Of a stretch of 64,000 bases of DNA, positions 5,367 through 46,800 are shown piece by piece; within the stretch, counting starts at the first letter, position 1, and each line of letters starts with the position of its first letter. This stretch comes from Phoronis australis (Eukaryota; Animalia; Phoronida), in contig NMRA01000368.1 of NCBI GenBank assembly GCA_002633005.1, positions 234,166-298,165 on the forward strand, written 5' to 3'. The notes beneath the pieces were generated by a model. It was not told the DNA's origin, made no database searches, and saw only the letters and a program-made list of their open reading frames with translations. The translations under genes and the position numbers were made by a program.

Positions 5367-5600
5367 GCTCTTGCACTTGACAAGTGATGAAGCAATTGCC
5401 GGGTAATGTCAAAACATTAACCGGAACCAAAAGAACCAAAACTCTAACAATGGCTGAATGCAGCCCCTCGCTGGATAACTGCAGAGTAGAAAATATAGAT
5501 GAAACTCAAGAATCTAAATGCACATACACCGCTGGTGAAGAACCATCACCAGCGCCAACAAACAGTAGAAAGAAGGAGGAGGTGAATGAGGACGAAACAG
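5367..5600 (+). CDS. First coding exon (MAECSPSLDNCRVENIDETQESK...EDET); an upstream non-coding exon is implied
   Basis: Acceptor tttcag ends at 5366; ATG at 5450 (alternative in-frame ATG at 5387); donor G|gtaacg at 5600/5601; acidic, low-complexity peptide. Confidence 0.7.
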
Positions 5601-8600
5601 GTAACGAATTGCAAGGCAGGTGATGTTATACGAATGTTCCGTTCGTTGAGTTCCTTTACAAGAAACTGAAAATATCAATTCAATCTTGAGTACGATCATC
5701 GCCTATAAGGCGAACATATCACGTGTACAAAGTGTCATCTGACATCCCTGTCAACCTCCCTCATCCTTCTTACCTCCTTCTCACTCCCTTCTAAAACCGG
5801 GTTTTTTGGCTGTTTTGGAGATGAATAGGTCAAGAGTATTATTGTGGGCGTAAGTACATGTATGGACTGAGTAATGAGTAATTTCACTGGTTATCTGTGT
5901 GAATAGACATATGTTTGTATAAATAAATCTTTTTCAGTGAGGCGTGGAGATATGTTGGAAATGGTTTATCCCTGCACGGTTAGCAGAAGGTCATGGGTTC
6001 GAGTCCCGGTCAGGGGCAGAAATCTTTTCGGACTTACATTCATTAGGTCACGTCACGTGACCAAAAGATGGCGGGTTGAACGGGATAAACTATTTCCAAC
6101 ATATGCAGCCGATTTCATAAATGTGGATTAACTTAAACCTGGTCTTCCTAAACCTGGTCTAATTTTAGACCTGACTTGCATTTCACCAACATGGTTTAAG
6201 AGTCTGAAAGCCTAGTTTTGCAGCTGGTTCAGTAAAACTGTTACTGTGTCAACCATATCACGTCTACTAGACAAAGTGTCATCTAATGTCAGAACAATTC
6301 TCGGACTCTTTACCGTCGGAGGTGTCCCCACCTCCATCCCTCTCAACCTCCCTGCTCCTTCTTTGCTCCCCCTCTCTCCATTATGAAACCGGGTAATGTG
6401 GCTGTTTGAAAATGAGTAGGTCAACAGCATTACGGATGGGTAAGTGTTGACTGAGTAATGAGTAATTTCACTGGTTATGTGTTGCTTTTTGAATTTGCTG
6501 GTTTGTCGGTGAAAACGTTTTTTCGATGTGAGAATCGTAAGTTAGGGCATATGTCTTGGGGGGAGGGGCAGCACCAGGATCACAAATGGGGTAGACGAGG
6601 AGATGATTTCACTGGCGGCTGTGGAAAGATATTGAAAATCACCAGGCATGGTATTTTGTGGACTCATTGTAAGCCTGGTACACCGATATGAAATGCCGAC
6701 TTGGATATACATTTTTCATGACCCTTTATTTGTCAATCCAACATAATATTTCAGGAGAATCTGAACATGGATCGTATAGGCAAGGGCTTTCTGATGCAAT
6801 CAATGGTCGAGTAATAAGTGGAGTGCATTCTCTCAGTATTTTTGACAACGTGGACAATCTCCAGATGGGGAACAACAATACTATGATTGAGTGTCAGGAG
6901 GAACCGGGAAATAGTGAGTACATGTGTTCACAAGAAAGATTTGAATTTACAGGACACATAAGATATGACACAGTCCGAAACTTCATACAGAAAGGGTAAA
7001 AGGCAGGAATTTCTTGCTTTCATGCAACACGAAAACGAAATATTTACTAAAAGTTATTTTAACCATCTTCTGATGGACTAATCAAAGTAAAAAATAAGGT
7101 GATTTTAGATAAAAGTCCAGCGCAATCAATCAAATACTTTCTCGAATTCTACCAGTGAAGCCAACCCTAGACGTTCACCTGACTGAGGACAAAACCTTAA
7201 TTCACAATGCACGCGGATATTTTCGTCCCTAATTCTTCCTGAAATGAATCCTGTTTGGTCTTCACTGATTAATTTTCCCATAACAGATTACTAAAAACGT
7301 TCAGCCACAGCCAATGATGTCATTTTTACGTTACATTTGGTAAACATACAATCTGTATTTTTAAATAATGATCACTTGTGCTTTGAAGATATAAGTAATC
7401 AGGTCCGTTTTCAATGTGCTTGATATTACTGAGCTTTAACTACACGTTAAACGCGAACGCGAACGTGGGTCGGAATTACTATGTCAAACCAATGACTTAT
7501 ACATTTCCGCGACAAGTCCTGTCACTCGTTTGGAAACAACGCGAAGACAACGAATCTCACGAAAGTGCAAAACGTGATTTTCAATTGTCCATTTATCATA
7601 AAAAGTCGTTTGATGCATGCAACTTTTTAAACGTCTTTTGAAAAATTACCAATAGTGAAGTGTAGAGCATGATTGTGTCCCACACAGTTGGATGTCTGAA
7701 ATATCATAGGAGGATCCAGAGGGTCAAGGAGATCCGAACTTCTTTTTACCCTTGATTTTGGAGAAATCAAATCTAAAAGTTTCAATCTTTTGACTTGAAC
7801 CCCCTTTTCAAAAAATCTTTGATCCGACCCTCCCTTTAAAAATCCTGGATCCGCTCTTGAATATGACCTTTGTTTGGGGGCCCTTCTCCCATTGCGGATT
7901 TTTTCAGAAAATCCAAGGAAAACAGTGGCAATAAGTGACACACATTTGCTGTCAAACACAGTAGCGTGTAGAGGTTTGATGATCTGTACTTAAATGCATG
8001 AGTCCTAGTACTAAGAAAGATGTTACATAAAGTTAAAGCTAAAGTAAACTAATCACTCCAAATTTCAAAAGGGATATGCGTAGTGACTGGAGGCTCCATC
8101 CCTGCCCGGGGCAGCAGCCCTGTCGCCCCCCTCCCCTCTTTCTGCCCTCCACTGCCAAAATATCTCTATCACGATAATATTCCAAGAAAGCAAATGAGAT
8201 GAATGGCTTGATTAAACTGTAATGTTAGAGTTAAACACAAATCTTTTTTCTCAGTGCAATTTTGCTCAAAATCAGTGTTGGTATCACAAAAATGACAGCT
8301 TAAATTTTTTGATCATTTGGATGTTGATTGTTTTCACGGGGGACAGAACATAATGTTGTCACCATGGTCATATTTAGTTCCTCGAGCTGCCACCACTGTT
8401 TAACGCAGTTGCCGGTAACAGTCAACTTTATGGATCCCTGAGGTCAGAATGACAGCATTATTCAATGGAAGTAACTGGTTCTGCTGAAATCTGGGACCAA
8501 TCCGCGACCCAAAAAACCTACTAGTCAATGCCGTGCCACAGTGACATCACCACAGTGTCGCTCACACGGTGGCTATCATTAGGTAACCCTTCTCATGGGC

Positions 8601-11600
8601 GGCGCAGAACTGAAAAAAGTTGGGCTATAGCCCTCCAGTCCCTTTTTATGGGCCGCCCATGCTTTTTCAGCGGCGTTCGCGTTTGACGTGAAGCTAAAAC
8701 TCACCAAAAGGAAACTCGACATTTTAGCAAATAAAGAATCAAAGAAATTAATGACCGACGTTAGTCCAAGCAATTCAAACATTTGACTGAAAAACCTTCA
8801 GAACCTACATAACGTTGTTTTTCATTTTTTCTCAAACAGCGTGAATTCTCTTTGTATACACTATAAAAGACCTCCAATTTTCCTTTCCCGCACACACCTT
8901 ATTACCTGAAGAAGAGTCTCTAAGGCAATATCAGATACTTCTTACAACTCATCACCATTGGTTTCATGTCTCTAGAAAGTTAAGTGCGAAACTCTTGGTT
9001 GGCAAACCTTGGCTCTTTTGACCTCAGGTCATAAGATATATCCTCCAACTGACTTTAGCTGCTGCAGGGAGCGTGCGTTGGCAACTGTTGTATCCCCTTC
9101 GCTTAAGTGTGGGTTTTGGTATTTGTACATAATTAGTAGTGTACTCAGACGGTGGATATTCATCCAGGTGAATAAATAGATGCAAAAAAAATATATTTTA
9201 CAACTTCTGTTGCCCAATTCTTAGTTCCATTTCTGAGCAGAGAATGTTATTTGAAGTATTCACTAGAAAGCGAGAAATGAAAAGTTTACATATCAATCAC
9301 GCCAAGCGATATTACGAGATCCTGACAGTAAAAGGCCCAGTTAGGTTTTCGTTCTTTGGGTAGGGAAACAAGGATAACTACAGGCTTATGTATACATATG
9401 AATGTAATTATATTTCAGATGAACTAAAAAAGGAGGACAGTAGCGGACAACCCTCCCATTGTACTACTAACACGCCTGGACGTGCGAATTCTTCTTGTGT
9501 CGCTGTTTTGCGTGACGTAAAGAACGCCCAGATAGGAAACTGTAACAAAATGATGGTTGCTGGTCAAATAAACAACGAAGACACAGAATACTTTAGGGCC
9601 CAACATGAACAAATTGGAAGTTCAAACCCAGACACGCCGTCTGGCCAGGTTTCATCAGACGGCAGCTCAGAGAGCACAATTAATGAAGGAATTAATAAAG
9701 GTAATGGCCCATGGACTGTATTTTGAAGGGTTCCAGCAAGGGCATTTCACAGTCTTATTATCGAAACACCACAGGTGTTACCTCTCAAGACCGACACTTT
9801 CAAGACATACACCTTCTTTAAATGAACAATGTTGTCATCATATACAATTGTCAGAGCAATCTTATCCAACAGTTCATGTGACACTGGTGACATAGTCATT
9901 TGGTTTTATGTTGCAAGAGTGTAGTCACTTTTGTGCAAACTGATTTTGGCTAAAACTACTGCAAGGTCTTACAGTAGGCAGACAAGCGCCTTTGCTACAT
10001 AGGGTATACCTTGTACAGAAAAGGAATCGTCTTTTGAGCAATGTCATGAACAATCAATGCAATGTTCTTCCAGAGTCACCATGGAATGTGGCTTACGTTA
10101 TTTTATTATCCGTCCATTGATGCTCCGTTCCTCAAATTTCTTTGTCTTGTAAACTGGCATGTTATTCATGGTTCCATGTACTTACATCGTCTTCTGCCAT
10201 CTGTAAGTTAACAAGTTAGTGGCTTATTGGTCCTGTAAAGTGTAAATTGGCCACGTTGGGTGTTGGCATATGAACAATGCGGATGGAGTGGCGTTATTGT
10301 GTGACCATAAGGAAGCCATGGTATTGCGTTTTAGGAACACTTAGACACCATAAATATCAGTGGATCTGTATTTGCCCATGTGGCTCACTTGCGCCCAAAC
10401 AGACGTTCACAGAATATTTGAACGAAATTGTCCCCTTAACTTTGAGAACAACTTACTGAGTTAATGAACCCACCAAGTGGATCGCAAGTTTCACGAATCA
10501 AGTAAGGAGTAGTACGGGACATGGGCTGCACATAATGGAGGGTTGGGGGGGGGGCTATGACCCCCTTTTATTTCAGTGCTGCGCCGCCCGCTGTCTACGC
10601 GGGGACTGGGGGGAGGGCATAACCCCAATTTTTCATTGATGCGCCGCCCTTGCTGGATACACGTGTAACTAAATGAAGTAGGAACTAAATGAAGTAGGCA
10701 TCGTGTCCATAAGACCTTTGCTTTAATATCAATGATCACCGACAGAATGATAAACACAACAAATTTGCAAGTTTGCCTAAATACAACATCTTTTTGGTTT
10801 CAGGTGCCAGTGATGGTTGTTCTGCGGAGCCCGAACCAACACACGATATCAAATTAAATGAATTGGTGACAGAAGCGATCGATGGTAATTTATCAATGTA
10901 CAAATGACACAGTTGACAATTACGGCGTAAACACGTTGTAGCTTTAAAAATATGACACATAACTAATCATTATCGATAGAAATTTAAAGGTACAGGAAAA
11001 ACCTATGTCACGTGGTAAATACTTTGCCGGTAGGCGTTTGAAATAACACAGTTTGACTGGAATGTAATTATGAGTTTATTGATCAAATGTTTAAATTTTC
11101 TCAAATAAATCGTAAAAATTCCCAAAGAAGGTTAATCTAATCAGTCTGTGATCACGTTTTCCCTTTCCCGTCGTTGTCATTGGATTCAACGTTACGTTTG
11201 TTGTCTGTGACGAGTTTCCTTTCTCTTGATCAAGCCATCCATTGTTCCAAGTAGTCTTCATTTGACAGAATGCTTCGGAAAAAAACATAAAGTTCAGTCC
11301 GTCAAAGATTAGATATGTTAACATGAATTCAGTCCATCGAATTCTATATACGATGTATCCTATTGAAATTCGGTCCATCGAATTTCTGCTACAATGCATC
11401 GGATTGAAATTCAGTCCATCCAATTTCTAACATTTGTGATATTTATGTAGCAATCCAGTGGCATCTCTTCAAGAAATATCTGCGATAACTCTATAGCTAT
11501 CTGGTTGCCACTCTTCAAGAAATATACCTTCTTGAATAGCTAACAGAATATTCATACTGAACAGATTAAATGTGGCCGAGATAGATTAAAACATAAAACC

Positions 11601-14600
11601 CCAAAACTTCCTCCAAACGCTACTCGTAGTTAAAAACAATTCTCGGAACAAAATCGTATGATTCCAAATAAGAACCCATGCCGTCGCCAAACATGGTAAC
11701 GGACAGCTACAGTTTTAAGTATTTTCTGATCAATGATAACAAGATTATTGTTGTTGCATGAAATGGCTCGCCCCAAAGTTGACCAGTTCCCGTGAATTTA
11801 AAGTTACATAACTCTGCTAGCATAACATGAACACATGGTCACAAATTTCGGTAAACAGCCAATACATTTAATTAATTACACATGCATTATTCGCATGCAC
11901 ATAATTAACTTTCTCATTCAAAACTTGCATTTGAGTTTATTTGGGTAAAAATCCATGAGTGCGCATCAGTAGATATAAGTGCAGCACATGTATGAAATCT
12001 TTAATAACCGATACTGCACTCAAATCAAGAAAAATGTATGCATGTTCTCATTTCGTGATGACTGGCCAACTAATCATTTTGGTCATGGTGACAACCTGTA
12101 CCTGAAGACACGTCTAAGGAAATAACGGAAATATGATTAACGTGGAAACAAAGAAAAATGTCAAAGGTTCTGTTCTAGGGTAGCTCGTACTCTGGACGAC
12201 ACAATTATCTCCCTAAAAAATTATGTTTTTGCTTTTTCAGACGCTGAACATTTAGTTGACAGTAGCTCGAGATTGCTGCAGCACATTGACAGTGACTCGC
12301 AAGGTTCGTATGGAGTTGTCGTGCACACATTATATCAATGCATAAAAATTTCTACTAACATTTTGGTGTGCAAACGCAGTTTTATTTGAAATAAAATTCG
12401 AGCACCATTTTGAACTGAAAGTAAAAAATAATGACCAATTTGTTATTCTGAGCCGTCGGTGCGGGGAACATGGGCTGCAGGAGATACGGGTCTGAGAACA
12501 GTAAGACGACCGCCTTAAGCATCTAACAAGAATCTAATTTTTCAATACCTTAAAAAACAGAGCATGTGATGTATGAGCTACACTCTTCAAGGCTAACCTT
12601 CTAGGGAAAAGAGTTGGTTACAAGTATGTAATGCAAATCCATATGGTTTTTGTTCCCAAATATCAATTTAAGCACATTAATGTGTCAATAAATAACATTC
12701 CTTTTATTGTTGATCAATCCTATAACATTTTCAAATTATTTGGTTGGGATGTTGCACAGAAATAGTGTCATATAGCTTCGTATAGATGTCTTTTTACATC
12801 TTCTACAAATCCATGTACTTATGAAGAACCAACAAACAAATGGTCGAAATCACACAACTTTAAAAGGGACTTACAACTAATCAAGTTACTGCTTAAGCTT
12901 GTGGGCTTCTGGTTAGAGTACGTATTGATGTGGTTAAGTTACATGTAGATAAATATTTCACTTGACATCAAATCATGTTTCAACGATTCAACGATCTTAA
13001 GCTCATTCTTGTCAATCACAGTTTTGGTAATTCTCGACCAGTTGCTTGTATATCACGAAAAGTGGATGAGTCATGAAAGTTAAAACGTAAAGTTGGAAGT
13101 TCATTTCTTCCAGAAGACTACAAGTAGGCCTATAGAATTTGTTGCACCAGTGTTACAGTTGAAGGAATGAATCTACACATTATCTAATGCATAACGTTTT
13201 GGTGCGTCAGGTAACGATTCTCCTGCTAAAGAACACTCAAACGAAGGAAGGATGCGGACTGTGGAAAGCACGATAATAGAGCAACAAAATGCTGAGAACT
13301 CTCAGCTTCGGAAAGAAATTATTGTATTGTCACGTGGAAACTGGAAGGTGATTTTTTTAAAAAGTGGCTGCATCGAAATAACCTTTGAATGCACGAGTTT
13401 GGAAGATGTTGAAGACCTTAGAAAACAACTGTTGGATGGTCATTTAGATGGAAACCTCAAAAGAGCTTTCATGACCGAAGAAGTAACGAAATTGACCGAG
13501 GGTGTTGACTTTGACATCAGCATCGAGGTTGTCGATATACGTACAAGTAAGTGCAGTCACAACAGGATACTCGTGTAGTGCTTTAGATGGCAAATTCATG
13601 ATGTAAATCGTTGGATAATTCAACTTTTCGCATTGCCATTCTCTGACAGGGCTTCATTTTCAGAAGTTTCAGAAATTGTACAATAAGCTTGTACTTGTCT
13701 GGCATGTACTGATAAAGCATTAGAACGGAATAGAGAGTAAAGAAATCGTCTCTTGGTGTCTTAGCAGCTGTAACTCTGAGATAAAATCCTTCACGTGCTT
13801 ATTGTAAACACTTCAGCACACAAGTTTGGAAATTTGTGTTCACTCTTCCGTGTTCTCCTTACTTTTGGTTTATTTAAAATAATCATGTTGCATTCCCTTT
13901 TTCAACAATATTACAATATGTCAACAAATTTTTGATGTGCCCAGTAATTTATTGCCACAGAGAGCGTGGTCTCAAAGTAAATGTTGCAAATTTCCCTGTT
14001 TTTGCCAAGTAGTGTCACCACGTGTGATGTGCTGGTGATTAACACTGGGGTGAGGGGTAAACACCAAATGTGTGAGACACTGTAGTAGCATAGAACCCCT
14101 GCTGTTAGGAAGCTCAATAAGAATCGCAATTATGCAAATTGTGGTTGGAGTGTCCAGCTTGCAGCTTTCTTGAAATGTGAAAATTTGGTGTTCTGGCTCC
14201 AAGTATGCCACGTTTGCCTGAAACCGAGAAGGTCCGAGCTCTTGAACAAGTTGATGTTGATCTTCCCAGAATGTATTAGGCACCTCCTGACTCAGGAGTG
14301 GAATGCCATCACCCAGCTACGAATCACCAGGCTAGTAAACAGCATGCGAAGAAGATCTGTCGCTGTATTGACTGCGAGTAGATTGTCAACCCAATACTGG
14401 GAAGACCACTGTTATCTATCAGTCAGATCATCACTATTGTCTATCAGTTGGTTGTTTAAAAAATAAAGTGATTAAGTGTTGCCTAATTGTCATTAGTTTT
14501 TAGTTCCATGGAACCAGCATTGAAATTGCTATTGAAAAAGATGAATGCTTTAACTTGAATACACATTTAGCTCCAACTGAATTTGCAACATTCACTTTGA

Positions 14601-17600
14601 GACCAAGCCTTCTTTGGCCGGGCAGAAGAGTAACTAATCATAATAACCATTTATTGACGGAAAGTGGTATCATTGGATAGGAGAATGACTGGGGTTTCTA
14701 TTGGTATGCAATATGATTTACTTAAAACAGAAATAATGAAAACACTGAAGAGTGAACACAAATTTCCGAACTTTTGGATATGTGTTTATTTTGTTGCCTA
14801 TACACGTACGTGCTCGAAATTAACTCGGCTCATTGGTCATGTCATAAATTGTGCCCCACGATACAGTGAGACGAATATCTCACTTTATCTGACAAGCGTA
14901 AATTCTTGCAGCATGCAGGCGAGCTGGGTTAAGTGCTTAGCCTATTATAATTCATAATTGCATTTCCTGGCAACAACCAATCTCTCTCGCTGGAACTCCC
15001 TAACCGTGTGTACTACATTTATTTCGTTTACTACCAACGTAAATAACAAGTCAGTCTGCATTTCGCTAGCGTTGAGTTGTAACCTGAGCTAAAGTTCACT
15101 CAAAGACGACAGGTCAGCCTGAGCAATCCTCAGCGCTTGTCCTAATTTCAGTACAATCAGCGTTGCTTTTTCGTAACGAGAGTCGTATAAAGGAGGTAGA
15201 CATGCATATCGGTTTTTCATATTCTTCTATAAAATGTGTAAAATTTATTGTTACAGGGTGTTAGATGTTTCGGAAATCCCGAGGAAACATGGAACAAGTT
15301 TTTGGGTCATCCATTGATCCAAAGAAAAATACCGTTTTTTTAATCCCTCTTCCAACAAATGCTGTCACGTGTTTTCAAAAACTTACCGTGGTCCCGTTCA
15401 TGGCACCAATAATTACTTAAAGGTGTAAATCTATTGTGTATGTATCTTACTGTACTTTTTGGATTTGCCAAATACGTAATATTCACTTCATAACCCTAGG
15501 AGGGCTTTGAAGTTCCTTTATATAAGATTTCAAATTGTACCATGATTTGGTTTGATCAATTCATGACAGAAAAAAATTCATCAATTGTATTGCCTCTACC
15601 GTCAAATAATGAATTGGGATCAATGCGTTCGAAGTTTTGCAAACATCACATTCTTCTTTTGGTCACCTCAGACTGAAAAGTATGCATGTAATGCTCCAGT
15701 GTTACCAGTGTGCATGGATAACTGTACAATTGTTCATTCTGACATAGATTTTACGTGTAGTGGTGTGAAAATTGGCAATTTGTGGTTAAAACGTATGTGC
15801 TATCGTGTGGGTTGTGTAGTCAGATTCCGTTCAAATGAGCTGAACCGTTTTGTAGGGTAATGGAATTTTCAAATTTTATCAAAATGACCACTTTGCAATT
15901 TTTCGAATTAATTAAAATGTTCACGGCGAAACGCAACTGAAGAATCAAAGCCTATGTTTATGAAAAAGTTTTTGAATTGTGAAAAAATTCTAAAATATAG
16001 TGTTAAGACAGAATTTTCTTCTACAAGTAAATTTGTTTTAGACGGGCATAAAACAGTACTAGGATGGCAAGGGATCGTACAATTTTAAAGTAAATGAGAG
16101 CTGGCTGTATGAATTGCTTTGTGAGAATGACTTTTTGCTGTGATGCCTTTGTACTGTTTCAGTTCACGTTGACGAAATTATGACCAAAGCAAAGGAAATA
16201 GAAGAAGGAATTTCGAGGTTGCATCAGAAAAAAGGCAATGTGATGGATCTATTGCCTAAAGCGGGAAAAATTGACTCCTGCACGGGTAAGTTCAATCTTT
16301 AGCCTGGTTATCGCTCCTCTCCAAAATTCACAGTGGCTGTATTTCACTATTTGCTAATGATGTTCCATAATCTCACTATTGCAGTTTACCTGGAATTCAC
16401 AGGAGGCTCAGTTTCTTCTCGCAGTGATTTTGTGTGTGTCCATGTATCCTCCCAGGACAATTTGTGACTCCACAGTAAAGATTTTTGAATCGATAGTATG
16501 AGTTGTTTACTCACCACACTGGTTCACAAAGGTTGCAAGAGATAAGAACTTAATTATACATGTACATATACATATATTCACTGCCTTGTACATCTAAGGT
16601 ACAGTGGGGTGTTCGGTTGACTAGTACCATCTCACCATAGCAGAGCTTAGAGAACTCGGATCCGGCGGTTAATCTGCCTCCTCTTGGTCATAGAAATGAC
16701 TTGGCAAGGTAGACTGGCCCTCCCAATAAGTGCACAGGCTGCTCCCCAATCACAAAACATTTTTATACTTTTATATTTTACTCCATGTTGATGTCCTCTG
16801 GATAACAGCAACGCATTGATGAATTCACTCTACGCAAATCCTGTGCTGTTCGTTCTTATTAAATAAGCAGAAATGAAGCGAGACGTAACAGGCTAGTGAT
16901 TTTCCAAATAAAGAAGTCAATCACTAAGGAACCTGACTGTATTTTTGGCTTGAACGAAGCCGACTGCACGATGCAAGTTGGAGTCAAACTAACATTACGG
17001 TTGTGAACTATCAGCCTAGATGTAAAGTGTATGACTTATATGCCAAGACAAAGGTCCCGGACACAAAAACAGCTGTTCCGTGCCCAAACTCAAAACAATT
17101 CCACCACGGGGGTTTGGTCTAGGACTACACAGAGTTTCAGGACGATCGGCCACGTCGTCTCGGCGCCTTAGTGGGTACTTAAAGAATTTTGCTTACCGGG
17201 TATTAAATTCACAGGATCGCTTCTCATGGTGCCTTCAAACTTTTGTTTCCTATTTTGTATCAAGACTACTCTTAAAATTCCTTGTGAACCGCCCGGGCGT
17301 TCTGCTTATCACAGTTCTTTTCTCATGAACACGCCGGATTACCCGCTGCAATTGTTTTTTTGTGTACCACCATGAATCTGTTCTCTCTGTATCATTCGTA
17401 CATGTAGTTGAAATTCTGAAAACTAGGGCAACCTCCCTGGGTGTGCACGGTCGCATTCTTGCTGCCCCATATCCCACACGAATATGCATGGTGTCATTTG
17501 TCTCCGAGGGTTTTCGTTGTTATTAGTGTTTTTATTTTAAGTGGCAGTTATTATCACACGTGCGTAAATGTAGCCGCACCAGCAGTCGTGGTGGTGGTAC

Positions 17601-20600
17601 TGATGCTTGTACCGTTGGTATTTTTAGATGATCAACTTAAGCAGCTTTCGGAGAAAGAGGAGAAATTGAAGAGTAATTACAAGAAACTCACAGAAATCAT
17701 CCAGAAGGAAGAAATAAAACAAAAACATGAAAGTATGTAGAAGCTATATTTGTTCCTTATACATGTATGTGTCCTTGGAGCATGTGTCAGTCTAAGAATC
17801 CTTCACAAAAAGAATTCATCCCCGAAGCTTGAAAAAACAAGCAGAATTTGAAATCATGTGACAATTACGTTTTTGTAAATGCATTTATGTCTCATTTCTG
17901 AAAAAATAGCATTGTTTTATCAAGCCATGGATATGTTCGCATGCTCTTCAAACTGGAACAATCCGTCTCGAATGGGTGGTTAACCTGAAACTGGCGCCTC
18001 TTTTTTGAAATTCCATATAATATGCAAATCCGCAGTTGCGAGTCTGATGTCTGTTATCGATGCTTTAACATAAATTGTGGGTTAATTTTTGATAAGTTTC
18101 TACTAGATATGTGTTAAGAGTAATTGTGAACGAGAACCGTTATGGAGGGACCCTGTTTTGTTTCCACTATATTGGCGATTTCTCGGTTAAGAGTTATATT
18201 GTTTGCAGGCCAATCTTCAGTTGATTACAGTTCCGAGAGTAACTCTAGGAAAGAAAATTTGCAGTTAATAGCACGAGTGAATCTTATTGAAAAGGGCGTT
18301 TTCGAGGAAGCAGGTTAGTATACGTTTCTTGTTAGAATGGAAATTTTCCCTTTTCAGATTGAAAAGTTACTTGCCGTATGACGCGTTTTGACACCCACGC
18401 GCCTTCTTGGGACAACTTTTTGACACATAGTTTTATCCAAAATAGTAATTTGGTACACGGTGTATTCAGTTACCAATCCTTTACACGGCGATCGTTATTC
18501 CATAACAGTGAAACTATGATACTGGTCAATTTCAATAAAAGCAAGTGCTATCAACAGCAAATAATCAAGTTTGCATTTCAGAGCGACAACTTGAAAGGTT
18601 GGAGGCGAGGGAAGCAGAATTGGCAGCATCATTCAGAGATCGTTCTGCGACTGGAGGATCGTCATCAGTATGTGAAATACTTCAGCAACTGGGAGATGTT
18701 TACAAAGAACGAGGTTTGCTGACTAAGTCCACACAACACATCGCAACAGCTTCTGCATTATATAACGCGGCTTTCGTTGGTGAAAAGGAAGCTGATTCTG
18801 TTCGGAATCTTGAAATGCTGTTGAGAGAAAACGAAACCGCTTTCTGCCGAATTTTATCCTTATCAGATGGTATGCTACCAGTTGAGTTCAGGTCAAAGGT
18901 TATTGACAGGTTAGAGACTCTTAGACTTGGCGTGACCTCTGAAAGTAAACAGTTACTGGACAACTTTTCGGAAAATCTTAAATTTGATGCACCACACGAT
19001 GAAAGAACTGATATAGAAAAGGCGTTTGTGATCGAGACCAGAAAGCTCTCTCAACGTGTAAGCGATGAAATAGCATCTTTGTGTGAAGAGTTCTTGTCAA
19101 AAAGTTGCGAAATACTGGGTCCACCACCTCACGAATATGCTGTCATTGCCTTTGGGTCCTTGGCAAGGGGCGATATTACACCAAGTTCAAGTAGGCCTAT
19201 TAAACTGGGTATTCTTTGTGAAAACGATTGCAGAGATGTCGAGTATTTTAAAAACATGATGAATCTTGTCCACGTATTTGGCCATAATGTGGGAGAAACA
19301 GATGTTAGTACTTTGAACATCAAATCACTGAACGACAATGTTACACTAGGTCGTGTAACAACTCCCGGATTCTCACTCGACAGTTCTTTTCCTCATTCGG
19401 ACGCAACAGGGCAGGAAAGAAACACATTAATTGCGACTCCCACCCAAATGACAGAGATACTTGACTATGGCTCATCGTCATCACGTGGTCATGAGTTCAT
19501 TGATGTCGTTCAAATCCATGGTAGCGCTGGCGGCGATTCACTATTTAAGGAATTTGAGTACATGAAATCTAAAAAATCGGCAAGCAGAAAAGGAAATCTC
19601 TTGTCGGAAATTCAAAATTGCAAAGGAGACATGTTTGTCGTAAGCCTTTTTAAACCACTCTTTCGTCTGGAAAACAACAATGTGTGGGAAAGGCTTAATG
19701 AAATGAGATCCAAGGCATTTTTGTCAGACGAAGCCACGCACAATTTACAAGTGGCGTTATCGATAAGCGCGCTCTTCAGACTGCACGGACAGACTAGTGA
19801 CGGGGAGCAGAATGAATGGCACACTGTAAGCCAGCTCTTATCAATTCTTGCGAGCGGTAACTCTGAACAAGGAGAAGCGCCGAAGTACAGCAAATACAAC
19901 CCTGTCATTATCAGATACTGTTGTACGGCTTTGCCTTTTTTTGCCTTTTTGTGCAAACAGGGTTCTGATTTTGAGCTGGACACCGAAATAAAAAAACAGA
20001 AGTTCTGCGATGAGTTTCTATTAAAAATGGGTGGGGTACTCATATTGTCACAGGTCAGTGAAGACAAAGGTGAGCATAGTATTGAAGAGTATCTTAAATC
20101 CTTAAGTGTCGCAGGTGAGGCTAGCAGTGATACTATGGAGGAGATAGCAACGGAATGGTTGAACCGAATAACTGGGACAGACCACAGCAATACCTCTTCC
20201 CAGGACTCGGCAGACGTTGGGTTTTCAAGTAGTTTTGACGATGCCGGGTGTCATATACTAGCGCCATGTTTGTACATTATGGGACAAATGTACAGTAAAA
20301 TGGGTAAGCATCAATTGGCCTTGAATTATTACCACAAATCACTGATTCTCTGGAAAAGACTTTATGGTGAACGCGATAGGCACGAAGTTGCTGCATGTTT
20401 CAATGGCATCGGATGTGCACACGTGAGTTTGGGCGATTACAACCAGGCCCTAAAGTTCCTTAAGGAATCCTTGGATGTGACGAAGAGAATCACTGGAAAC
20501 AGAGATGACAGCAAAATTGCTCTATGCTTAAATAACATGGGGAACGTTTACTTGGACAGGGGAGATTACAAATCCGCTCTGGAATGTTACAATAACTCGC

Positions 20601-21526
20601 TGAGTATGATGAAACGACTTCCTGGAGATGAAAATCGAGCTGATATGGCGTCTTGCTTGAACAACATGGGTAACTTGTGTAAAACGTTGGGCCAGCACGA
20701 TTTAGCCATGGAACACCTTGAGGAGTCGTTGAGGTTAATGCGAAGAAAGTACGGTGAAGTAGATCACCCGGAAGTTGCATCGGCATTGAACAATATTGCA
20801 AGTGTATACCTGGCTAAGGGCAAATACCAAGTTGCATTGGAATCTTTTAAAAAGGCTTTGGCAATGAGGAAGAGAATACTTGGAGATGTTGAAGATTCTG
20901 ACATTGCATCATCTATGAATAACATAGGTGGTGCGTACTATGAAATGGGAAACTACAATGAAGCTTTAACATACTTAAAACAATCACTGAAAACTTTAAA
21001 GAAAATAATTGAAAAAAAAGATCACCCTGACATCGCGCACTGTTTGAGTAACATAGGAAGTGTGTATAGTAAAACGAATCAATACGAAAAAGCTTTGGGA
21101 TATTTCAAAGAATCATTGGCTATGTTGAGAAAGATCCATGGTGATGCTCATCCAGATGTTGCGTCATTTTTGAATAATATTGGGAATGTGTACAGTCGGA
21201 TGGGGAATTACGGAAGCGCGCTGAAGAACTACAAAGATGCACTGACGATCTGGCAGAAGGTCCATGGAGATAATTACCATCCTAACATGGTCACGTGCTT
21301 ACAGAATATGTCGGCTATGTGTGCAGGACTCGACAAAGTTGATCTAGCCAAGCAGTATGCAAGAGACTCGCACTATGTTAGGAACAAACTTGAGTCTGGT
21401 GGACATAAGGTGGATGTTAATTCAAGACTAGCAAAGGGTAATTTGAATGCAGCTTCTTCCTCAAGTTCGTTTTTACCTTTCACAGTAAACCAAATAGGAC
21501 ATCCTCTAAGGTACTGGCGGTGTTAG
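5450..21526 (+). CDS. Spliced gene, about 1449 aa: 2x RHIM-like motif - TRADD-N-like domain - coiled coil - DUF294-like (pseudo)nucleotidyltransferase - 9x TPR. join(5450-5600,6755-6913,9419-9700,10804-10884,12241-12303,13211-13546,16163-16285,17628-17732,18209-18313,18582-21526)
   Basis: Every exon is bounded by a pyrimidine-rich ...ag acceptor and a gt donor (gtaacg, gtgagt, gtaatg, gtaatt, gttcgt, gtaagt, gtaagt, gtatgt, gttagt). All junctions are phase 1 and join into one open 4350-nt frame. ATG context is aacaATGG. The small exons are less certain than the large ones. Confidence 0.8.
5727..6478 (+). repeat. Diverged direct duplication of about 170 bp in intron 1 (5727-5894 and about 6271-6478)
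   Basis: Shared blocks acaaagtgtcatct, catccct.tcaacctccct, aaaccggg, gactgagtaatgagtaatttcactggttat. Confidence 0.75.
5940..6016 (+). mobile_element. Degenerate tRNA-derived SINE head
   Basis: B-box GGTTCGAGTCC at 5996-6006 with T-arm-like context; no intact cloverleaf. Confidence 0.4.
6755..6913 (+). CDS. Exon 2 with RHIM-like motif 1 (LSIFDNVDNLQMGNNNTMI)
   Basis: Acceptor atttcag, donor A|gtgagt; 159 nt symmetric phase-1 exon; core LQMG at 6859-6870. Confidence 0.8.
9419..9700 (+). CDS. Exon 3 with RHIM-like motif 2 (VAVLRDVKNAQIGNCNKMMV)
   Basis: Acceptor tatttcag, donor G|gtaatg; 282 nt phase 1-1; core AQIG at 9526-9537. Confidence 0.8.
10804..10884 (+). CDS. Exon 4 (GASDGCSAEPEPTHDIKLNELVTEAID), linker
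   Basis: tttttggtttcag acceptor, G|gtaatt donor, 81 nt open in phase 1. Confidence 0.7.
11290..11429. repeat. Minisatellite, about 4 copies of a 35-40-bp unit (gaaattcagtccatcgaatt...)
   Basis: Recurring ttcagtccatc core at about 11293, 11328, 11368 and 11411. Confidence 0.75.
12241..12303 (+). CDS. Exon 5 (DAEHLVDSSSRLLQHIDSDSQ), linker
   Basis: Strong acceptor tttttgctttttcag, donor G|gttcgt, 63 nt open in phase 1. Confidence 0.65.
13211..13546 (+). CDS. Exon 6, TRADD-N-like domain (WKVIFLKSGCIEITFECTSLEDVEDLRKQLLDGHLDGNLKRAFMTEEV...DFDISIEV)
   Basis: 336 nt phase 1-1, donor A|gtaagt. The pattern G[SC]hxhxhxCxSLxxhxxL...GxL...hTEE..h.h.h resembles the TRADD-like N-terminal domain I recall from invertebrate death-fold and NLR proteins. 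Confidence 0.75.
13955..14615 (+). mobile_element. Internally deleted Tc1-like DNA transposon in intron 6
   Basis: Inverted repeats tggtctcaaagtaaatgttgcaaatt (13967-13992) and aatttgcaacattcactttgagacca (14580-14605). Internal peptide LLTQEWNAITQLRITRLVNSMRRRSVAVLTA matches the Tc1 transposase C-terminus (EEW..I.Q..I..L..SM.RR..AV). Confidence 0.75.
16163..16285 (+). CDS. Exon 7, helical/coiled coil (IHVDEIMTKAKEIEEGISRLHQKK...)
   Basis: tgtttcag acceptor, G|gtaagt donor, 123 nt phase 1-1. Confidence 0.75.
17628..17732 (+). CDS. Exon 8, coiled coil (DDQLKQLSEKEEKLKSNYKKLTEIIQKEEIKQKHE)
   Basis: tttttag acceptor, A|gtatgt donor, 105 nt phase 1-1, heptad-like E/K-rich peptide. Confidence 0.78.
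18209..18313 (+). CDS. Exon 9 (SQSSVDYSSESNSRKENLQLIARVNLIEKGVFEEA)
   Basis: gtttgcag acceptor, G|gttagt donor, 105 nt phase 1-1. Confidence 0.7.
18582..21526 (+). CDS. Large terminal exon: helical region, DUF294-like NTase fold (about 19110-19500), DUF294_C-like helices (about 19650-19820), nine 42-43-aa TPRs (about 20258-21380)
   Basis: Uninterrupted frame of about 980 codons; acceptor ttgcatttcag ends at 18581; motif GPPPHEYAVIAFGSLAR...LGIL; repeats of type HPDVASxLNNIGxVYxxxGxYxxALxxxKxSLxMxKKI. Confidence 0.93.
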
Positions 21527-39500: not shown

Positions 39501-42500
39501 TGACAGAGGCTCCAGTGCTGTCGGGACGTTACCAACCTTCGAGGTACTTAACACTTATGGCATGCAAGTGGACAACTACTTCGACTTCCAGATACATAAC
39601 CCTTTGTACAAGACTGTAATCTCATGCATGTAGTAGTCAAAGATTTAATGGATTGCTAAGTTCATTCACTACAGATTTACAATTGCAAGCCCTGACTTAG
39701 AGAATTAGTAAGCAAAATATCATAACGTAGTCGCTGGGACATGAAACACTGAATCTGTGATCTTTAGCATGCACAACAAGACGAGAAGACCAGACATACA
39801 ACCAGTGAACAAGGTTGGGAAGGTGCGAAGAAATGGTATGAGGAGAAGGGTCTCAAAGGGAGAGTTTGATGGGCAGCTAGCATCATCCGCTGATTTTCTT
39901 ATTATTATGTCCGATGGACGCTGGATTGGAGTGAGTGTCAGACTTTCAGAAATTATGTGGTTGCTTTTGCTTTATTGAGACTAAAACATGTTCAGTCATA
40001 CATTTTGTTGCAAATATTGTAAGCTTCTGTTACACTGTAAACACTAAAATGATACAGAATTCATTATTTTGTACCAATGCTCATTGTTGCCCCTTTTGCC
40101 TCATATCCTTGATTTTTCAGAATGAAGCAGCATGTCAAGAAGGCAGAGACTTAGCTCAACCAGCGCAACCAGGACGTAATGTGACGGCAGCGACATTCTC
40201 CAAACAACAGACAGCTAAGAAGAGGCCATATACTGACAGACCATCATGCCATATCAGCAGAGAACTCCACGGGAATGATCTCACAGCAATAGTTGCTCAC
40301 ATGAAGTCAACTCACTACGTAAACCTCACTTCAATACAGTATTTTATTTATGTAGGACCTTATTCAAAAATCTATATATTTAGCAATATAACTACTAAAC
40401 TATAGATTACTAGAGTTATGACTATATCAAGTGGGTCAAAAATTCAAAACTTTAGCTTTAATTTTTCAGAAAATATGTTTTGGTCAATGGATATCATGAG
40501 TTGTTAATTGACATGCAGCCACAGTATATCGCGTTTCTTTTTAAAAAGACATTGTGTGCGAAGACCAGACCGAGAGGCTAGTTGCAATGTCATGTATGTC
40601 ATGGCCTGTTGCCGACACATATTGTCGAGTTGTTGGTGAGTTGAATACCACTGATGCATATGTACAGGTTATCTCTATTACGCAAGACAAATCTCTTAAT
40701 CAGGTTTTCTTTTTTGTGACTTTTCAAATGATTGAAATGTATGTTGAAATGCATCAAACTTGATCTTCCTTATACATCCACGCGTGTTTGCGTATGTGTG
40801 GGTGCTATGTGCTGTTATCCTCACCCGTTCAATAACTGCATCACAACTAAACCTAGTCTACATTTCATTTTAAGGAGCAACGAGGTACCTCAGGCTGTTC
40901 ACAGCCAAGAAGCAAGTCCGCTTTTCAGCAGAATCTAGAGTGTACATGACTGGTGGTGGTGGTAGGAGTGATGACACTGGTGATGCTGGTGACAGTGATG
41001 GTGGTAACCTTCGATAATTGCTGTGGTAGTAATGCACCTATTAAGTATACTAACAAATCGTATGAAGGTAAATGCATTTGCATTTATGATGATGATGATG
41101 AGGATGGTAGTTCACTTACCCCTTTTCTCAGTAGTATTAGTAAAAGGGAAGCTTTATCTCAAATAGCTTATCCAGTAGTGTTACCCACACACCGAATCAC
41201 AGTATGCAATATAAATCAATTTAAAGAAGTCCAAACATGCAAATTTATGCCACGACAAACTGATATTAACAGCAGTTTTGACCTTTTGAACAAATATCCT
41301 ACAATGAATGAAGTTAAACTAAGATTTGGTACCTTCCACAAACGAGATCTTCAATACTTTGGCAACTTACATAACTGTAAGGTCATTTCACGCAAAGTAA
41401 ATGCAGAAAAGTTGTGGTTTAGGAATGCATACACTATTATCGAGCAGTCAAATAATATGAGGGCTCCAATAAACAGAAAGAACATTGAGACATTTCAACG
41501 CCAATCATTGCAGGGCAAAGACATAGACCAGGTCATGAACCACCCTGACTTAATTGTGGCAGATGCTGTGGACCTGCTTTGTAAATATTGGTTAAATAAA
41601 ATTTGCAGCTTTTTTGAATTTGGATCAGGCTAACACTTTGTGTAGCCTTTTTAATTTCCATTACGATTTGGATGTATTTAAGACCAAAGTACATTACCAG
41701 TGTGGTAGTGACCTTTCCCAAAGTAAGCTTATATTTGTTGTACATGTAGGAATCAACAGTAACAAATCTACCTTTCTAAGTGGTGAGAATGGGGAGGCTG
41801 GTAACCACTGGGCGTTACTTGTATATTCGTTTAGAAATCAAACCTTAATTTATGCAGACACAAATGGATGGGCAATACAAAATGTTCTCTCAGAGAACTT
41901 TAATGTTTTAGTCCAAAGTTTGGGTGGGTCAATTGAGTTAACTCATTATGTACACAGTCCTAATAATACACAAATGCGAAGGAAAAAATCACACATTTGT
42001 TTGCAGACTTGTTCTCATACATATCCTATCCAAACATGTGGAACAGTGTGCGGTGTGGCTGCAACTGTTGGGATGGCACTTGCTGTCTGTAATTTTGACA
42101 TCTTCACTAATTTAGCTTATGGTCAAATGGTCTCCTCACTGCACTATCTCAGAAACATAAGCAGTCATCCTTCGTTTTTGAGATTGGTTTTGATAGACTG
42201 GTTGGTTTCCAAAAAAGTTGACCATGAACAAATTAGGGTAAATGATAATGAAGTAGAGGAGAATCATGGCAATCAAACTTCGGGTCAAAATTATTCTCTA
42301 TAGTCCCATAGTAGTCTTATACTTGAGACGGTAATTGCACAAACACCAGAAACTGCCAGCTCTGACATGTCTAAAATGACACACAATTTCACTTATCGGC
42401 TTACTGAACTTGATAAGGAGACTAGACATTCAAAACCAAATGGTGAACATGAACATCCTGTCGATATGAATCATCTGGCAAACAACACTGCTGAACAGAA

Positions 42501-43861
42501 AAAGAGTTGCATTGCAAAAAACAAACTCAAGTTAACAAAAAAACAACTGGCACCAAGTAGCCATAGTATAGGAAATGATGAGTCTGTATTTCCTCAAGTT
42601 AATTCTGACAATGTCAACAGTGACAAATAACAATAATCACAATAATACCATCACCAACAGCAGCCCTGCTCTTACTAAGGACACCATAGATTTTTCTAGT
42701 ATATTACCATTTGTTAATGGAAGGTCAAAAATTTACGGAGATGGTGTTTTTTACAACTCTGTTTAGTCTTAAGGAGTGGTTCCAAAATTCAAAAGAAGTT
42801 TAAAAAGTCAAAGGAATGTTTCCGGACTTTATTAACAGTTGCGAGTGTGCTTATTGGATTCATAACAAGCAAGACCAAAACAGTGCAAAATTGGTAAATA
42901 GAATTGAAAATGTAGATTTTTCTAATATTTCTTCTTTCATTTCCAATAAGACAAAGATTTACAGAGATGGTAATTTTATGCGACTCTTTTTAGTTTTAAA
43001 CAATGGTGCACACCTTTCCAAGAGATTTGCTGGCTCTAATGGTGATACATACAGGACAATACAAAATTTCATCAACAGTAACGACTGCATTGATTGGATT
43101 AATGAAAATCAGCAACAGGTGGAAATAAGAGATGACATTATTGATGCCAGTTTGGTATCAACTTTTATTGCTTCACCGCCGTCACTCTCTTATGATCCAT
43201 AGTCACACTTACCACAGATACATCTAAAATTGTTGCTAAACAATGGCAAAATTTGCAGTCGGTATTTAACTTGCACAAACCAAGGATTGGATGATTGCAG
43301 CAGTGTGCAAAAGATTCAGGACTATGTTAACAGCAGACATTGCCAGTATTGGTTGGCTTCAGCTTCAGCAGAATTTCAAAAAAATAGGTCACTACAGGTT
43401 CGCGTTGGTTCAGATGCACTAAATTACATTGAAGAACTTCCATTTTCTGTGAATCAGGAATTAGTTATTTCAGAGCCACTCTACACGTCTTAGGAGTACC
43501 TCAAAGGGACGTCATGTGTGTCAGTAACCAAGTATCCTAACTGGGGGAAAACAAATAGACTGGACCAAAAATTTATTTATACAGGGAACTCTGTAAACAA
43601 GAACATTATCCATTGGAACTTAACATGCACTTCAAGCACAAATGGATGTAGAAGCAGGTATGGTGAACTTCTTTGTAACATCAGACAGAACATAACAGAT
43701 GATAAATGTCCCATCTGTCACGCTGATTTAAGCAGTAACAAAGTGTGTGGCAACTGCAATAGAAAACATTCTAGCCAGTGTAGTCCAGTCATTCTACGGA
43801 TAACCCGGGAATAATTGCAACAGAAGGTTTTATTGCATAAATCGTATCCTCTCACATCCCT
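36542..43861 (+). pseudogene. Degenerate spliced gene, probably transposon-borne: SGNH/GDSL hydrolase - zinc-finger-like motifs - Ulp1/C48-like cysteine protease - 3x ~75-aa repeat - Cys-rich domain; truncated by an Academ insertion
   Basis: Phase-compatible exons 36542-36547 (MR), 36818-36923 (VKVITDSI, block I), 37374-37548 (VLHAGTND, block III), 38341-38481 (in-frame TAG), 38855-38989 (DDGLHP, block V), 39108-39175, 39492-39543, 39768-39813, 40121-40318, about 40549-40635 (TAG; CHVC). A long exon from about 40875 follows, with frameshifts and stops, containing NHWALLV...IYAD...PIQTCGTVCGV. Confidence 0.75.
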
Positions 43862-46800
43862 TAGTGTGAGAAAAAAGTCTGCCGGAATCGGAGTGGCGGA
43901 AGTTGGTTTTTCAAGATGGCGGAAAAAATGGCCGCCATATTTGCAATGACCATTATAACTCGAGAGTGAAATGTGGTAGAGTAAAAATTCAAAAAGGTTT
44001 ACATATCTTTTGTGGGTCAACAACTCCATTGAAAATAATTTTGCATGGCTGCGGTGACACCGTCCGCCATTTTCCAAGATGGCCGCCAAAACTGCTTCGA
44101 GTTGCACAATTGGCATCAACAAATTAGTGCGTCGTCTTCATTTAAACATAGCCTCATAGGTTTTCTGGGTCGAATAATCCATTGAGACTTATTGCATTTG
44201 GCTCTAATGATAACTTTCGCTATTTTCCAAGATGGCCACCAAATAGTTGCTTGGTGTAATAACTTCAGATTCTAGAAACACGCCACCTTCACAGATTTCA
44301 TATCCTGAGTTTCATAGGTCAACATGTCCATTAAAATTATTTTTTTTGTCGTGCTCTGATTTATACGACTACCATTTTCAAGATTGTTAAACAAATAATA
44401 ACTTATTTGGGTGAAAAGCATCAGGTTCGCCTGGACTGAAGGCTCAATGTCTGGAAAATATGTGCTGTATCGAAAATAATTATCTGCAATTAATTTAGTA
44501 ATCTACTATCCACACCAATTAACCGTCTGTGTCACCTCCAGTTAGCTGTAAATATTAGTGAATACAGCAGCAGTTGAGACATGAGAACGGTTTAACAAGG
44601 TCTGTTTAGCAAATTAAACAGTTTATAAGCGCTTGTTCAGCTTCCACTAGGCTTCTGTCTAATGATGTTACATGTGCGTTCGAAGCAGTAATTCTCAGTC
44701 TGTGATCAAAATCTATACACAATCAACAAGTATTTACACAACTAATGTTTTTCAACTGAGAATGAATTGCTGCAGCTTATATGACTGTATTCTCCGCATG
44801 CAACCGAGCACGGCAATCCTAACTTCTTGCGAGTATATCTCTTGGAACTGCGGTTGGTCTTGCACGAGCATCTTGCTACTTTCAACAGGTTCTCTGGTGC
44901 TGTTGGCTGGTCCATCGTCGTGGGAATGAATTTTCCACTTGCCAGCATCCATCCCCAATACAGCGAGTCTAGGCTATTGCCACGGAAACTTGACCACTCT
45001 TTTTCTTGATAATATGTCCCGGCAGAATGGAATTTAGCTACTGAAGAAAGTTGGTGGTAATGACTATTTTGACTGTGGCTAGTCTGACACCTCATCCACA
45101 AATCGCTTGTATCGCAAGCCATCTAAATTTCCAGAGCCAGTACCGCCATAAAGCATAGACAAAACTCTTCCCAGCTTCAAATATGTCTTGCTTCAGCTTC
45201 ATGGGTCTTGTGGGTACTCCAGCGTTTTCGCAGAATTCTCAATCACACAGTTTCTTGAATGGGAGAGCCTTTGCTAATACCGAACAGGCGTAATGTTTTA
45301 TTGCAACCACCTATTGCATGCGCAAATGGCAAAACTGTGCAAGTTTCGGCACCAAGAGACAACTGTAGTTTCTTGATGTCACAGACTCTCCTCTTGAGCA
45401 TTGGAAATTGTTGTGAAGTAGCATGGTAACGCAAAAGAGCCAACAAGTCTGTCAGTGTATCGTCTGCAATAAGGGTAGTTGGACCTTGTGCTGCATTCTC
45501 TACTGATGCTTCTACAATTAAAACCTCTGTATCACCTTGAACTTTTACCACTGTGAAACCAGCATTTCCTAGCAAACTTGACAAAAAGTGAATGAATCAT
45601 TGTTTGTTTTTGCTCTTTGCCAAAAATGTTCCTTCTTTGACTTGATCACCATGTCACCATTGAAGTGAACTTCAGTTCCAACCACCCCACCCAGTCTTCG
45701 AAAATGGGAGTCACCTTTAGTTGATGGTCCATCTCAGTAACCATCAAAAACAACAGTAGGCTGGGTGCTCTTGCTGAAGTAATCCACATAAGGTCTACCA
45801 AACGACTGAAACGTTGCACCTCTAGGCCATGGAATACGGTGATGGAGAGAACCCCCTTCGATGCATGCATAACCGTGTTGTCTGGAAATTGAAATCCTCA
45901 GGTAGTCCCCCACTGGACTAGAGCGCATCAGCTAATATTGCTTTATTTGCACCTGTGGGAAGACCAGATGTATCAAAAAAGAGCCGGGGAACCAACACAC
46001 AGCTCAAACTTCAAAAGGCACGATGAACTTTCACTGTTGTCTTTTGCAGTTGTCAGGATTTGCTGAAATAGCAGTCGTGGATCCACTTCTGCAAAATTAC
46101 TATTACCAACATGAACTGATTGACTTGTCATTGTCACAACCTTGTCTTTCTTTCTGAATGTGAAGTCTTTCACACTTGACTCCTCCATAGTCAAGTGAAT
46201 CGCCTTCCCCACTTCTTTGGCATTTTTGGCATTGACGCGTGTGCCTGAAGTCACACCAGTGGCTATGTTCTGTAGTGTTTCTCTTTAAAATGGGTTTCTG
46301 TTGCGGAGGAATTCAACAAGGCTGAGGATGTCTTTGCCATCCCACGACTGTCTAGCCTGGGTACATTCTTTATGATGCTGGCAGCCACGGTGCACACTGC
46401 GCATCTCCCATTTTGGAACCTTTATTAAACCTCCTGTTGCTTTAATACTTTTCATGAGCGTTTGTTCAATTACAAGATCATATGACAAGCCTGCCCAGAA
46501 TCTGTCACTTTGTCTTAGGGCTTGTAATGGCCGTAGACGTCTGGGCGGGTGCCTTTGAGTTGCTGCATCTGCTGCAAGTGTATGTATGCAGATTTTGCAT
46601 AAGAGTTGTGACCATGCAGCTGCAAAATAAGGCAGCATTTCAAAAATTGCTTTTAGGCGGAACTCCCAATCTGACGTTATTTCTGCTCTTAAGAAATTCA
46701 AAGGATGTCAAGCACCTTCATATACTGTTGTCAAAGACTGGTGATTCGACTTTGCGAGGACAAGTCTGATTTATGTGCTTCGACTTTTATGGATACCTAC

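Follow-up and report, generated by a model that had tools for sequence, protein, structure and literature searches.

The 64,000-nt stretch of the Phoronis australis genome analysed here (contig NMRA01000368.1, hereafter the window; eukaryotic DNA with a GC content of about 39%) carries at 5450..21526 of its forward strand a predicted ten-exon gene, whose product would combine two RHIM-like motifs, a TRADD-N-like domain, a coiled coil, a nucleotidyltransferase (NTase) fold, a HEPN-like helical domain and an array of TPR repeats (Table 1). It is proposed, with about an even chance of being right, that this protein is a non-enzymatic scaffold of innate-immune signalling and an inactive member of a family of NTase-TPR proteins of the GlnE/DrrA type. 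The role as a scaffold is suggested by an AMPylase-like domain that is without its catalytic acids. The order of the domains and a role in immune signalling had both been put forward in an earlier note on this DNA and proved well founded, as did the TPR array, with its nine repeats and its TPR_12 match.

The core of the protein belongs to a large family. The N-terminal 557 residues of exon 10 retrieved 575 representatives at E ≤ 0.001, of which the best 150 were listed (best E 1e-77, about 30% identity), and among 30 relatives chosen for naming, 23 are from Branchiostoma, one is from Owenia, two are from endosymbionts (Holosporaceae and Ca. Jidaibacter) and four carry no organism label. A hidden Markov model (HMM) of the family recognizes the window core at E 7.9e-44, and in the Atlas the core lies at 0.95 to a mostly eukaryotic cluster with DUF294 on 89% of its members; Pfam DUF294 itself gives 18.5 bits (E 0.0019), below the cut-off of 21 bits. 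A word-index search with the core returned two proteins, including a Neochlamydia F-box-DUF294-TPR protein, while a PDB sequence search with an alignment of 76 rows (A2) returned TPR proteins only. The DUF294-type NTase named in the earlier note is supported. From the same alignment, an AlphaFold model of residues 595-990 was obtained (predicted local distance difference test, pLDDT, 79.5; predicted template modeling score 0.83); a single-sequence fold of exon 10 was poor, with a mean pLDDT of 48.5 over the core, and was discarded. The model superposes on the C-terminal domain of GlnE (3k7d; Z 17.4, root-mean-square deviation 3.2, 250 residues aligned), on DrrA (6yx5; Z 17.3, 3.6, 257) and on the N-terminal domain of GlnE (1v4a; Z 16.9, 3.5, 259), well above the next unrelated rows, and Foldseek concurs with these matches. 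Model residues 213-339 resemble HEPN-like and DrrA helical domains at middling Z scores of 4-6, and relatives carry matches to DUF294_C. The matches at Z 16.9-17.4 thus point to a fold of the protein-nucleotidyltransferase type, joined to a HEPN-like helical domain. By the model, the core is predicted to be neither a STAND NTPase nor cGAS-like; CD-NTase structures reach a Z of only about 3, compared with about 17 for GlnE and DrrA, and no NACHT or NB-ARC family is found among the Pfam rows of the core at E ≤ 10. The fold is shared with Escherichia coli GlnE (GS-ATase) and the Legionella DrrA/SidM ATase over about 250 residues at 10-13% identity. However, GlnE and DrrA actively AMPylate proteins and carry no TPR, RHIM or TRADD-N modules, whereas the window copy has lost the acids.

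The family motif is G-X11-D-X-E, with both acids present in 161 of 168 related copies, one acid lost in two and the pattern unmatched in five. It corresponds to the G-X11-D-X-D motif of GlnE and DrrA described in the available parts of two articles (PMC8097203, PMC12409994), and the motif acids are required for DrrA activity according to the available part of the former (PMC8097203). All 75 relatives in alignment A2 have the D, the E and a further D, and 72 of them have a K; at these positions the window protein has S672, K676, G725 and A743, together with a two-residue insertion, and even the relaxed motif G-X11-[DE]-X-[DE] is absent from it. Among 52 highly conserved columns it keeps 30, while each of the 75 relatives keeps at least 79%. 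Several separate changes of this kind make a sequencing error unlikely. Since both metal-binding acids are lost, the protein is predicted to be a pseudoenzyme, and judged from its sequence it is likely to be catalytically inactive.

A TRADD-N-like stretch was identified in four of 152 NTase relatives, some with the same and some with swapped N-termini, as the earlier note had proposed to look for: the stretch is preceded by a CARD in P0034, by CARD and fn3 in P0040, by two RHIM-like motifs in P0026 and by RHIM-like motifs in P0045, which also carries an IRF domain. P0026 (XP_035692194.1, a B. floridae RefSeq model) exhibits the same order of two RHIM-like motifs, TRADD-N, NTase and TPRs as the window; its Pfam matches to RHIM (E 0.03) and TRADD-like_N (E 0.058) are both below cut-off. 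The predicted chain of P0045 (XP_078621836.1) consists of RHIM-like motifs, the TRADD-N-like stretch, an IRF DNA-binding domain (E 1.7e-18), the NTase and TPRs. Both are about 30% identical to the window core, but the catalytic motif is intact in P0026 (D-x-E) and near-intact in P0045 (E-x-E), and lost in the window. In a tree of 169 NTase rows, the window protein lies on a long, unplaced branch (2.44) and shows no supported grouping with P0026 or P0045. In Branchiostoma, the RHIM-like/TRADD-N-like cassette (P0164-P0174) also sits at the head of proteins carrying Death, SH2, DEAD-type helicase, ankyrin, scavenger-receptor or TRIM/NHL domains, four of the cassette-headed proteins having a Pfam RHIM match above cut-off; as it stands atop so many different domains, it may serve as a swappable signaling head. 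Four amphioxus relatives (P0003, P0004, P0005, and P0007) carry two or three tandem NTase copies per predicted chain. The 90% cluster of P0034 also holds Xanthomonas proteins of 43 residues, probably a clustering artefact.

The architecture class as such is already known, although the earlier note had taken it to be undescribed. Supplementary file 4 of a 2021 study (PMC8195603), in its available part, lists XP_002605446.1 (P0040) and a B. belcheri protein as CARD+FN3+TRADD-N+NTase+HEPN+TPRs, as well as a protein with TIR, TRADD-N, coiled coil and NTase; no discussion of these NTase architectures was found in the available parts of that study. The P0040-type proteins listed there share with the window the order of immune adaptor, TRADD-N, NTase, HEPN and TPR, whereas in the window RHIM-like motifs replace CARD or TIR and the NTase looks inactive, P0040 retaining G-X11-D-X-E. 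Because this class is already listed, the single gene is less surprising; what is new is an inactive-looking RHIM version, and the view that this family, enlarged in amphioxus and shared with amoeba endosymbionts, comprises candidate animal AMPylases. Neither the RHIM-NTase-TPR form nor a description of these proteins as AMPylases was found in the full-text literature searched, a scope that excludes most subscription papers. The term “RHIM” is absent from the main text and from 12 of the 13 supplementary files of PMC8195603 (file 4 in part); file 13, the remainder of file 4, or Figure 1 of PMC4262963, which depicts Branchiostoma RHIM proteins, could hold a RHIM version.

Several other systems resemble the window protein in part. 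The Neochlamydia NEX2 family (F-box, optional OTU, DUF294, TPR), as presented in the available part of PMC4209131, has the same NTase-HEPN-TPR core (P0001, E 1.9e-9), and proteins of Holosporaceae and Ca. Jidaibacter have a similar one. Unlike the window protein, the NEX2-like proteins are bacterial, bear N-termini of the ubiquitin pathway and keep the motif intact; they are putatively directed at the host. Crassostrea proteins with HEPN, Ig, DED, TRADD-N, a cGAS-like domain and TPRs, treated in section 10 of PMC8195603, likewise unite TRADD-N, an NTase of the pol-beta superfamily and TPRs in one chain; their NTase, however, is described there as of the Mab-21/cGAS type, and CD-NTases match the window model only at about Z 3. 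NLRs or STAND receptors that start with RHIM-like or PFD motifs, such as fungal NWD2 and Branchiostoma BF82280, share with the window the succession of amyloid motif, central domain and repeat array, and the Branchiostoma RHIM proteins form a large and varied set that includes some layouts like those of NOD-like receptors (NLRs), as far as the available part of PMC4262963 goes. In contrast to NLRs and STAND receptors, the window protein has no NACHT or NB-ARC domain.

For the N-terminal modules, the evidence is of graded strength. RHIM-like motif 1 is the top one of 47,597 six-frame windows scored with a matrix from 17 relatives' motifs (19.4 bits, the next at 8.3) and has an HMM E of 0.016; its assignment is of moderate confidence. 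Motif 2 is the best non-self six-frame match to motif 1 (37 vs. 29) and only the fourth of the 47,597 windows with the relatives' matrix (5.7 bits), and its assignment is weak. The two cores occurred together in none of 20,000 shuffles of residues 1-490, with a pattern picked after the cores were known. Of the tandem RHIM claimed earlier, the first motif thus fares reasonably well and the second poorly. Exon 6 lies in the Atlas at 0.94 (216 of 256 features) to a cluster in which 58% of members carry TRADD-like_N. An HMM of 19 Branchiostoma TRADD-N-like stretches, built without the window row, places exon 6 first in six frames (E 1.8e-7, the next at 1.8); three of four homologous seed stretches match TRADD-like_N (best E 0.0018). 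TRADD-N has a uS/uC turn between strands 2 and 3 according to the available part of section 8 of PMC8195603, and the GC turn in the alignment of exon 6 fits this motif. A PDB sequence search with a five-row profile found no TRADD-N chain, and a word-index search with exon 6 alone gave no match. The Atlas and HMM results indirectly support the assignment of exon 6 as a TRADD-N-like domain of predicted fold, in agreement with the earlier note. The coiled coil, also claimed there, is predicted from a heptad pattern, its sole basis.

The ten exons yield an uninterrupted open reading frame (ORF) of 1449 residues without a stop (coding sequence 4.35 kb). All exon ends obey GT-AG, and each of the nine introns is in phase 1. 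In the 12.9-kb gene region, six forward-strand acceptors open a symmetric phase-1 exon, five of them being model exons, compared with zero to three in seven control strand-regions of the same size; the splice scores of this chance control are ad hoc, with thresholds chosen after the model was known. An extra exon candidate near 15256 was discarded, with an in-frame stop and no good donor. Four RNA runs labelled with the same species were aligned at a likeness of at least 90%, about 18-19% of each raw-read run being sampled. The junction of exons 8 and 9 was covered by eight reads in run X5, one read in X6 and one contig in X8, and that of exons 9 and 10 by four reads in X5 and five in X6; the sampled part of run X7 gave neither joint. 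The first mate of the junction reads always lies on the reverse strand, which fits a forward transcript, and the numbers of letters between the joint sides (14 and 16) equal those predicted. These reads are mostly 90-95% alike to the locus and therefore derive from a diverged allele or paralog; no exon indel is listed between the locus and this transcribed relative. The predicted ten-exon gene model consequently holds, RNA covering only the last two junctions and in a relative. The claim that nine upstream exons splice onto the TPR exon to give about 1449 residues thus stands for the open GT-AG phase-1 chain and for these two junctions. Intronic repeats at 5972-6220, 7805-7842 and 8594-8631 show heavy RNA cover with loose ends, mostly on both strands; that at 5972-6220 we take to resemble a tRNA-derived short interspersed nuclear element. 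Positions 5743-5898 and 6335-6482 are 79% alike.

Table 1. Features of the predicted gene in the window.
Feature	Position	Strand	Residues	Remarks
Exon 1	5450..5600	+	1-50	Start ATG flanked by A (-3) and G (+4); acidic, hydrophobic-poor; splice signals only
Exon 2	6755..6913	+	51-103	RHIM-like motif 1
Exon 3	9419..9700	+	104-197	RHIM-like motif 2
Exon 4	10804..10884	+	198-224	Linker; splice signals only
Exon 5	12241..12303	+	225-245	Linker; splice signals only
Exon 6	13211..13546	+	246-357	TRADD-N-like, GC at conserved uS turn; weak acceptor
Exon 7	16163..16285	+	358-398	Heptad pattern; trace RNA depth of 0.14 (X6) in its bin
Exon 8	17628..17732	+	399-433	Predicted coiled coil; joint to exon 9 in relative's RNA
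Exon 9	18209..18313	+	434-468	Both joints in relative's RNA
Exon 10	18582..21526	+	469-1449	TPR-like helices, NTase, HEPN-like domain, TPR array, stop
RHIM-like motif 1 (candidate)	6835-6888	+		Core LQMG..N, exon 2
RHIM-like motif 2 (weak candidate)	9502-9555	+		Core AQIG..N, exon 3
NTase fold, GlnE/DrrA-type (predicted)	18995..19546	+	about 607-790	Pfam, structure model
Degenerate catalytic motif	19154-19204	+		Window reads GSLARGDITPSSSRPIK
HEPN-like/DUF294_C-type helical domain (predicted)	19595..19981	+	about 807-935	
Nine TPR repeats	20264..21406	+	1030-1410	42-43 residues each; TPR_12 E 1.5e-76

In the proposed mechanism, every step of which is drawn by analogy from what is known of the domains, the TPR array and the inactive transferase would capture a protein, which could be of microbial origin or else a target or partner of active paralogs. 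Several copies would then be clustered by the coiled coil, and their RHIM-like motifs could seed a cross-beta assembly together with RHIM partners, while the TRADD-N-like domain might recruit a TRAF via its MATH domain, leading to NF-kB/IRF signaling or cell death. Activation would thus occur by clustering rather than by an ATP-driven switch of the NACHT type or by transfer of AMP.

Several observations weigh against this scaffold reading. First, the core retains G660 and S661 of the GS loop as well as E707, D735, K816 and R868, and with the GS loop, D735, K816 and R868 in place, nucleotide binding may persist. These four elements would suit an NLR-like receptor whose NTase fold, on binding a nucleotide, switches signaling from sensor to effector on or off, as would the order of effector, core and repeats and the NLR-like layouts among Branchiostoma RHIM proteins (PMC4262963, available part). 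This explanation is nevertheless quite unlikely: the modeled fold is that of a transferase rather than a STAND NTPase, and the loss of the two metal-binding acids, together with that of other invariant residues, leaves only 30 of 52 highly conserved columns against at least 79% in each of the 75 relatives. The earlier proposal that the NTase is a nucleotide-binding stand-in for NACHT is at odds with these same features, that is, a GlnE/DrrA-type transferase fold with a HEPN-like domain and without the metal-binding acids.

Secondly, neither LQMG nor AQIG fits the mammalian RHIM tetrad, (V/I)Q(V/I/L/C)G as given in the available part of PMC9444067. The window protein gives no match to Pfam RHIM, nor does it, or exon 6 alone, match Pfam TRADD-like_N, and the TRADD-N HMM test is partly circular since its seeds were first found by their weak likeness to exon 6. 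Non-canonical cores, together with a fold that is retained while its catalytic acids are gone, could also mark an inhibitor or decoy, an inactive copy that would dampen signaling, either in pairs with active paralogs or as a sink for RHIM and TRAF partners. cFLIP acts likewise on caspase-8. Such a role gains from the intact (P0026) or near-intact (P0045) motif of relatives with the same cassette, but both RHIM-like motifs, TRADD-N and the coiled coil have all been kept, and no active paralog was found within the window, where the HMM also found no second NTase copy. Taken together, inhibition is considered rather unlikely.

Thirdly, seven of the nine junctions are without RNA cover, no joint among exons 1-8 appears in the sampled reads of the four runs, and the reads that do span a junction are not identical to the locus. 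That the RHIM-like and TRADD-N exons are joined to the core is consequently deduced from splice signals and relatives. As all exons are symmetric, any of them could be skipped in frame, and the RHIM-like and TRADD-N exons might be optional, or part of a separate transcript, in which case the main product would comprise exons 8-10 (coiled coil, inactive NTase and TPR). RNA depth at a likeness of at least 90% lies over exons 8-10 and is absent or a trace over the bins of exons 1-7, and the acceptor of exon 6 is weak. However, the upstream exons share strand and phase, without a stop and with no other start evident; contig no. 6 of X8 has 99 unplaced letters upstream of exon 8, and cassette and core are likewise linked in Branchiostoma gene models. 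A truncated main product therefore appears distinctly improbable.

Finally, the exons of the locus and of its RNA relative show 15 non-synonymous and six synonymous differences among 21 codons (40 of 244 difference rows displayed), a ratio that either relaxed constraint or diversifying selection could produce. A functionless paralog drifting after expansion of the family would account for this ratio and for the long branch. A TPR remnant about 30 kb downstream, at 51709-52048 on the forward strand, points the same way: it is broken by a frame change and stops, matches the gene's TPR array at 37% identity in protein and 69% in DNA, and is likely, from its sequence, a decayed paralog; no NTase remnant was found beside it. 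Drift is nonetheless very unlikely, given that the 4.35-kb coding sequence is unbroken and the nine introns are intact, that the diverged relative is transcribed and spliced alike at two junctions without a listed exon indel, and that the structural core still models well. Unlike the broken remnant, the ORF and splice sites of the gene are intact despite a branch of this length.

Elsewhere in the window, a run of open pieces of 96-235 residues with a Cys-rich end extends over 40950-43811 on the forward strand, broken by stops and frame changes, and degenerate ORF pieces lie at 44745-46707 and 57543-57818 on the reverse strand; none of them matches a Pfam family at cut-off. The reverse-strand pieces presumably represent decayed genes of mobile elements.

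Fic proteins and SelO are named as metazoan or eukaryotic AMPylases in the available parts of PMC8097203 and PMC12409994. The present family is large, occurs in animals and combines the GlnE/DrrA fold with a catalytic motif that hardly varies, which makes it a directly testable candidate for a further AMPylase class. It is tentatively suggested, at well below even chances, that the family constitutes a third class of animal protein AMPylases, GlnE/DrrA-type and TPR-gated, shared with endosymbionts of amoebae, expanded in amphioxus and furnished with swappable immune heads (CARD, TIR, IRF, or RHIM plus TRADD-N), and that the Phoronis gene encodes an inactive sensor or decoy, which would turn engagement of the module into RHIM-amyloid signaling without a NACHT/NB-ARC switch. 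Fusion of the family to CARD, TIR, IRF, RHIM and TRADD-N would link protein nucleotidylation to innate immunity, and an inactive member that bears a signaling head suggests that pairs of enzyme and pseudoenzyme, or integrated decoys, may exist in the immunity of invertebrates.

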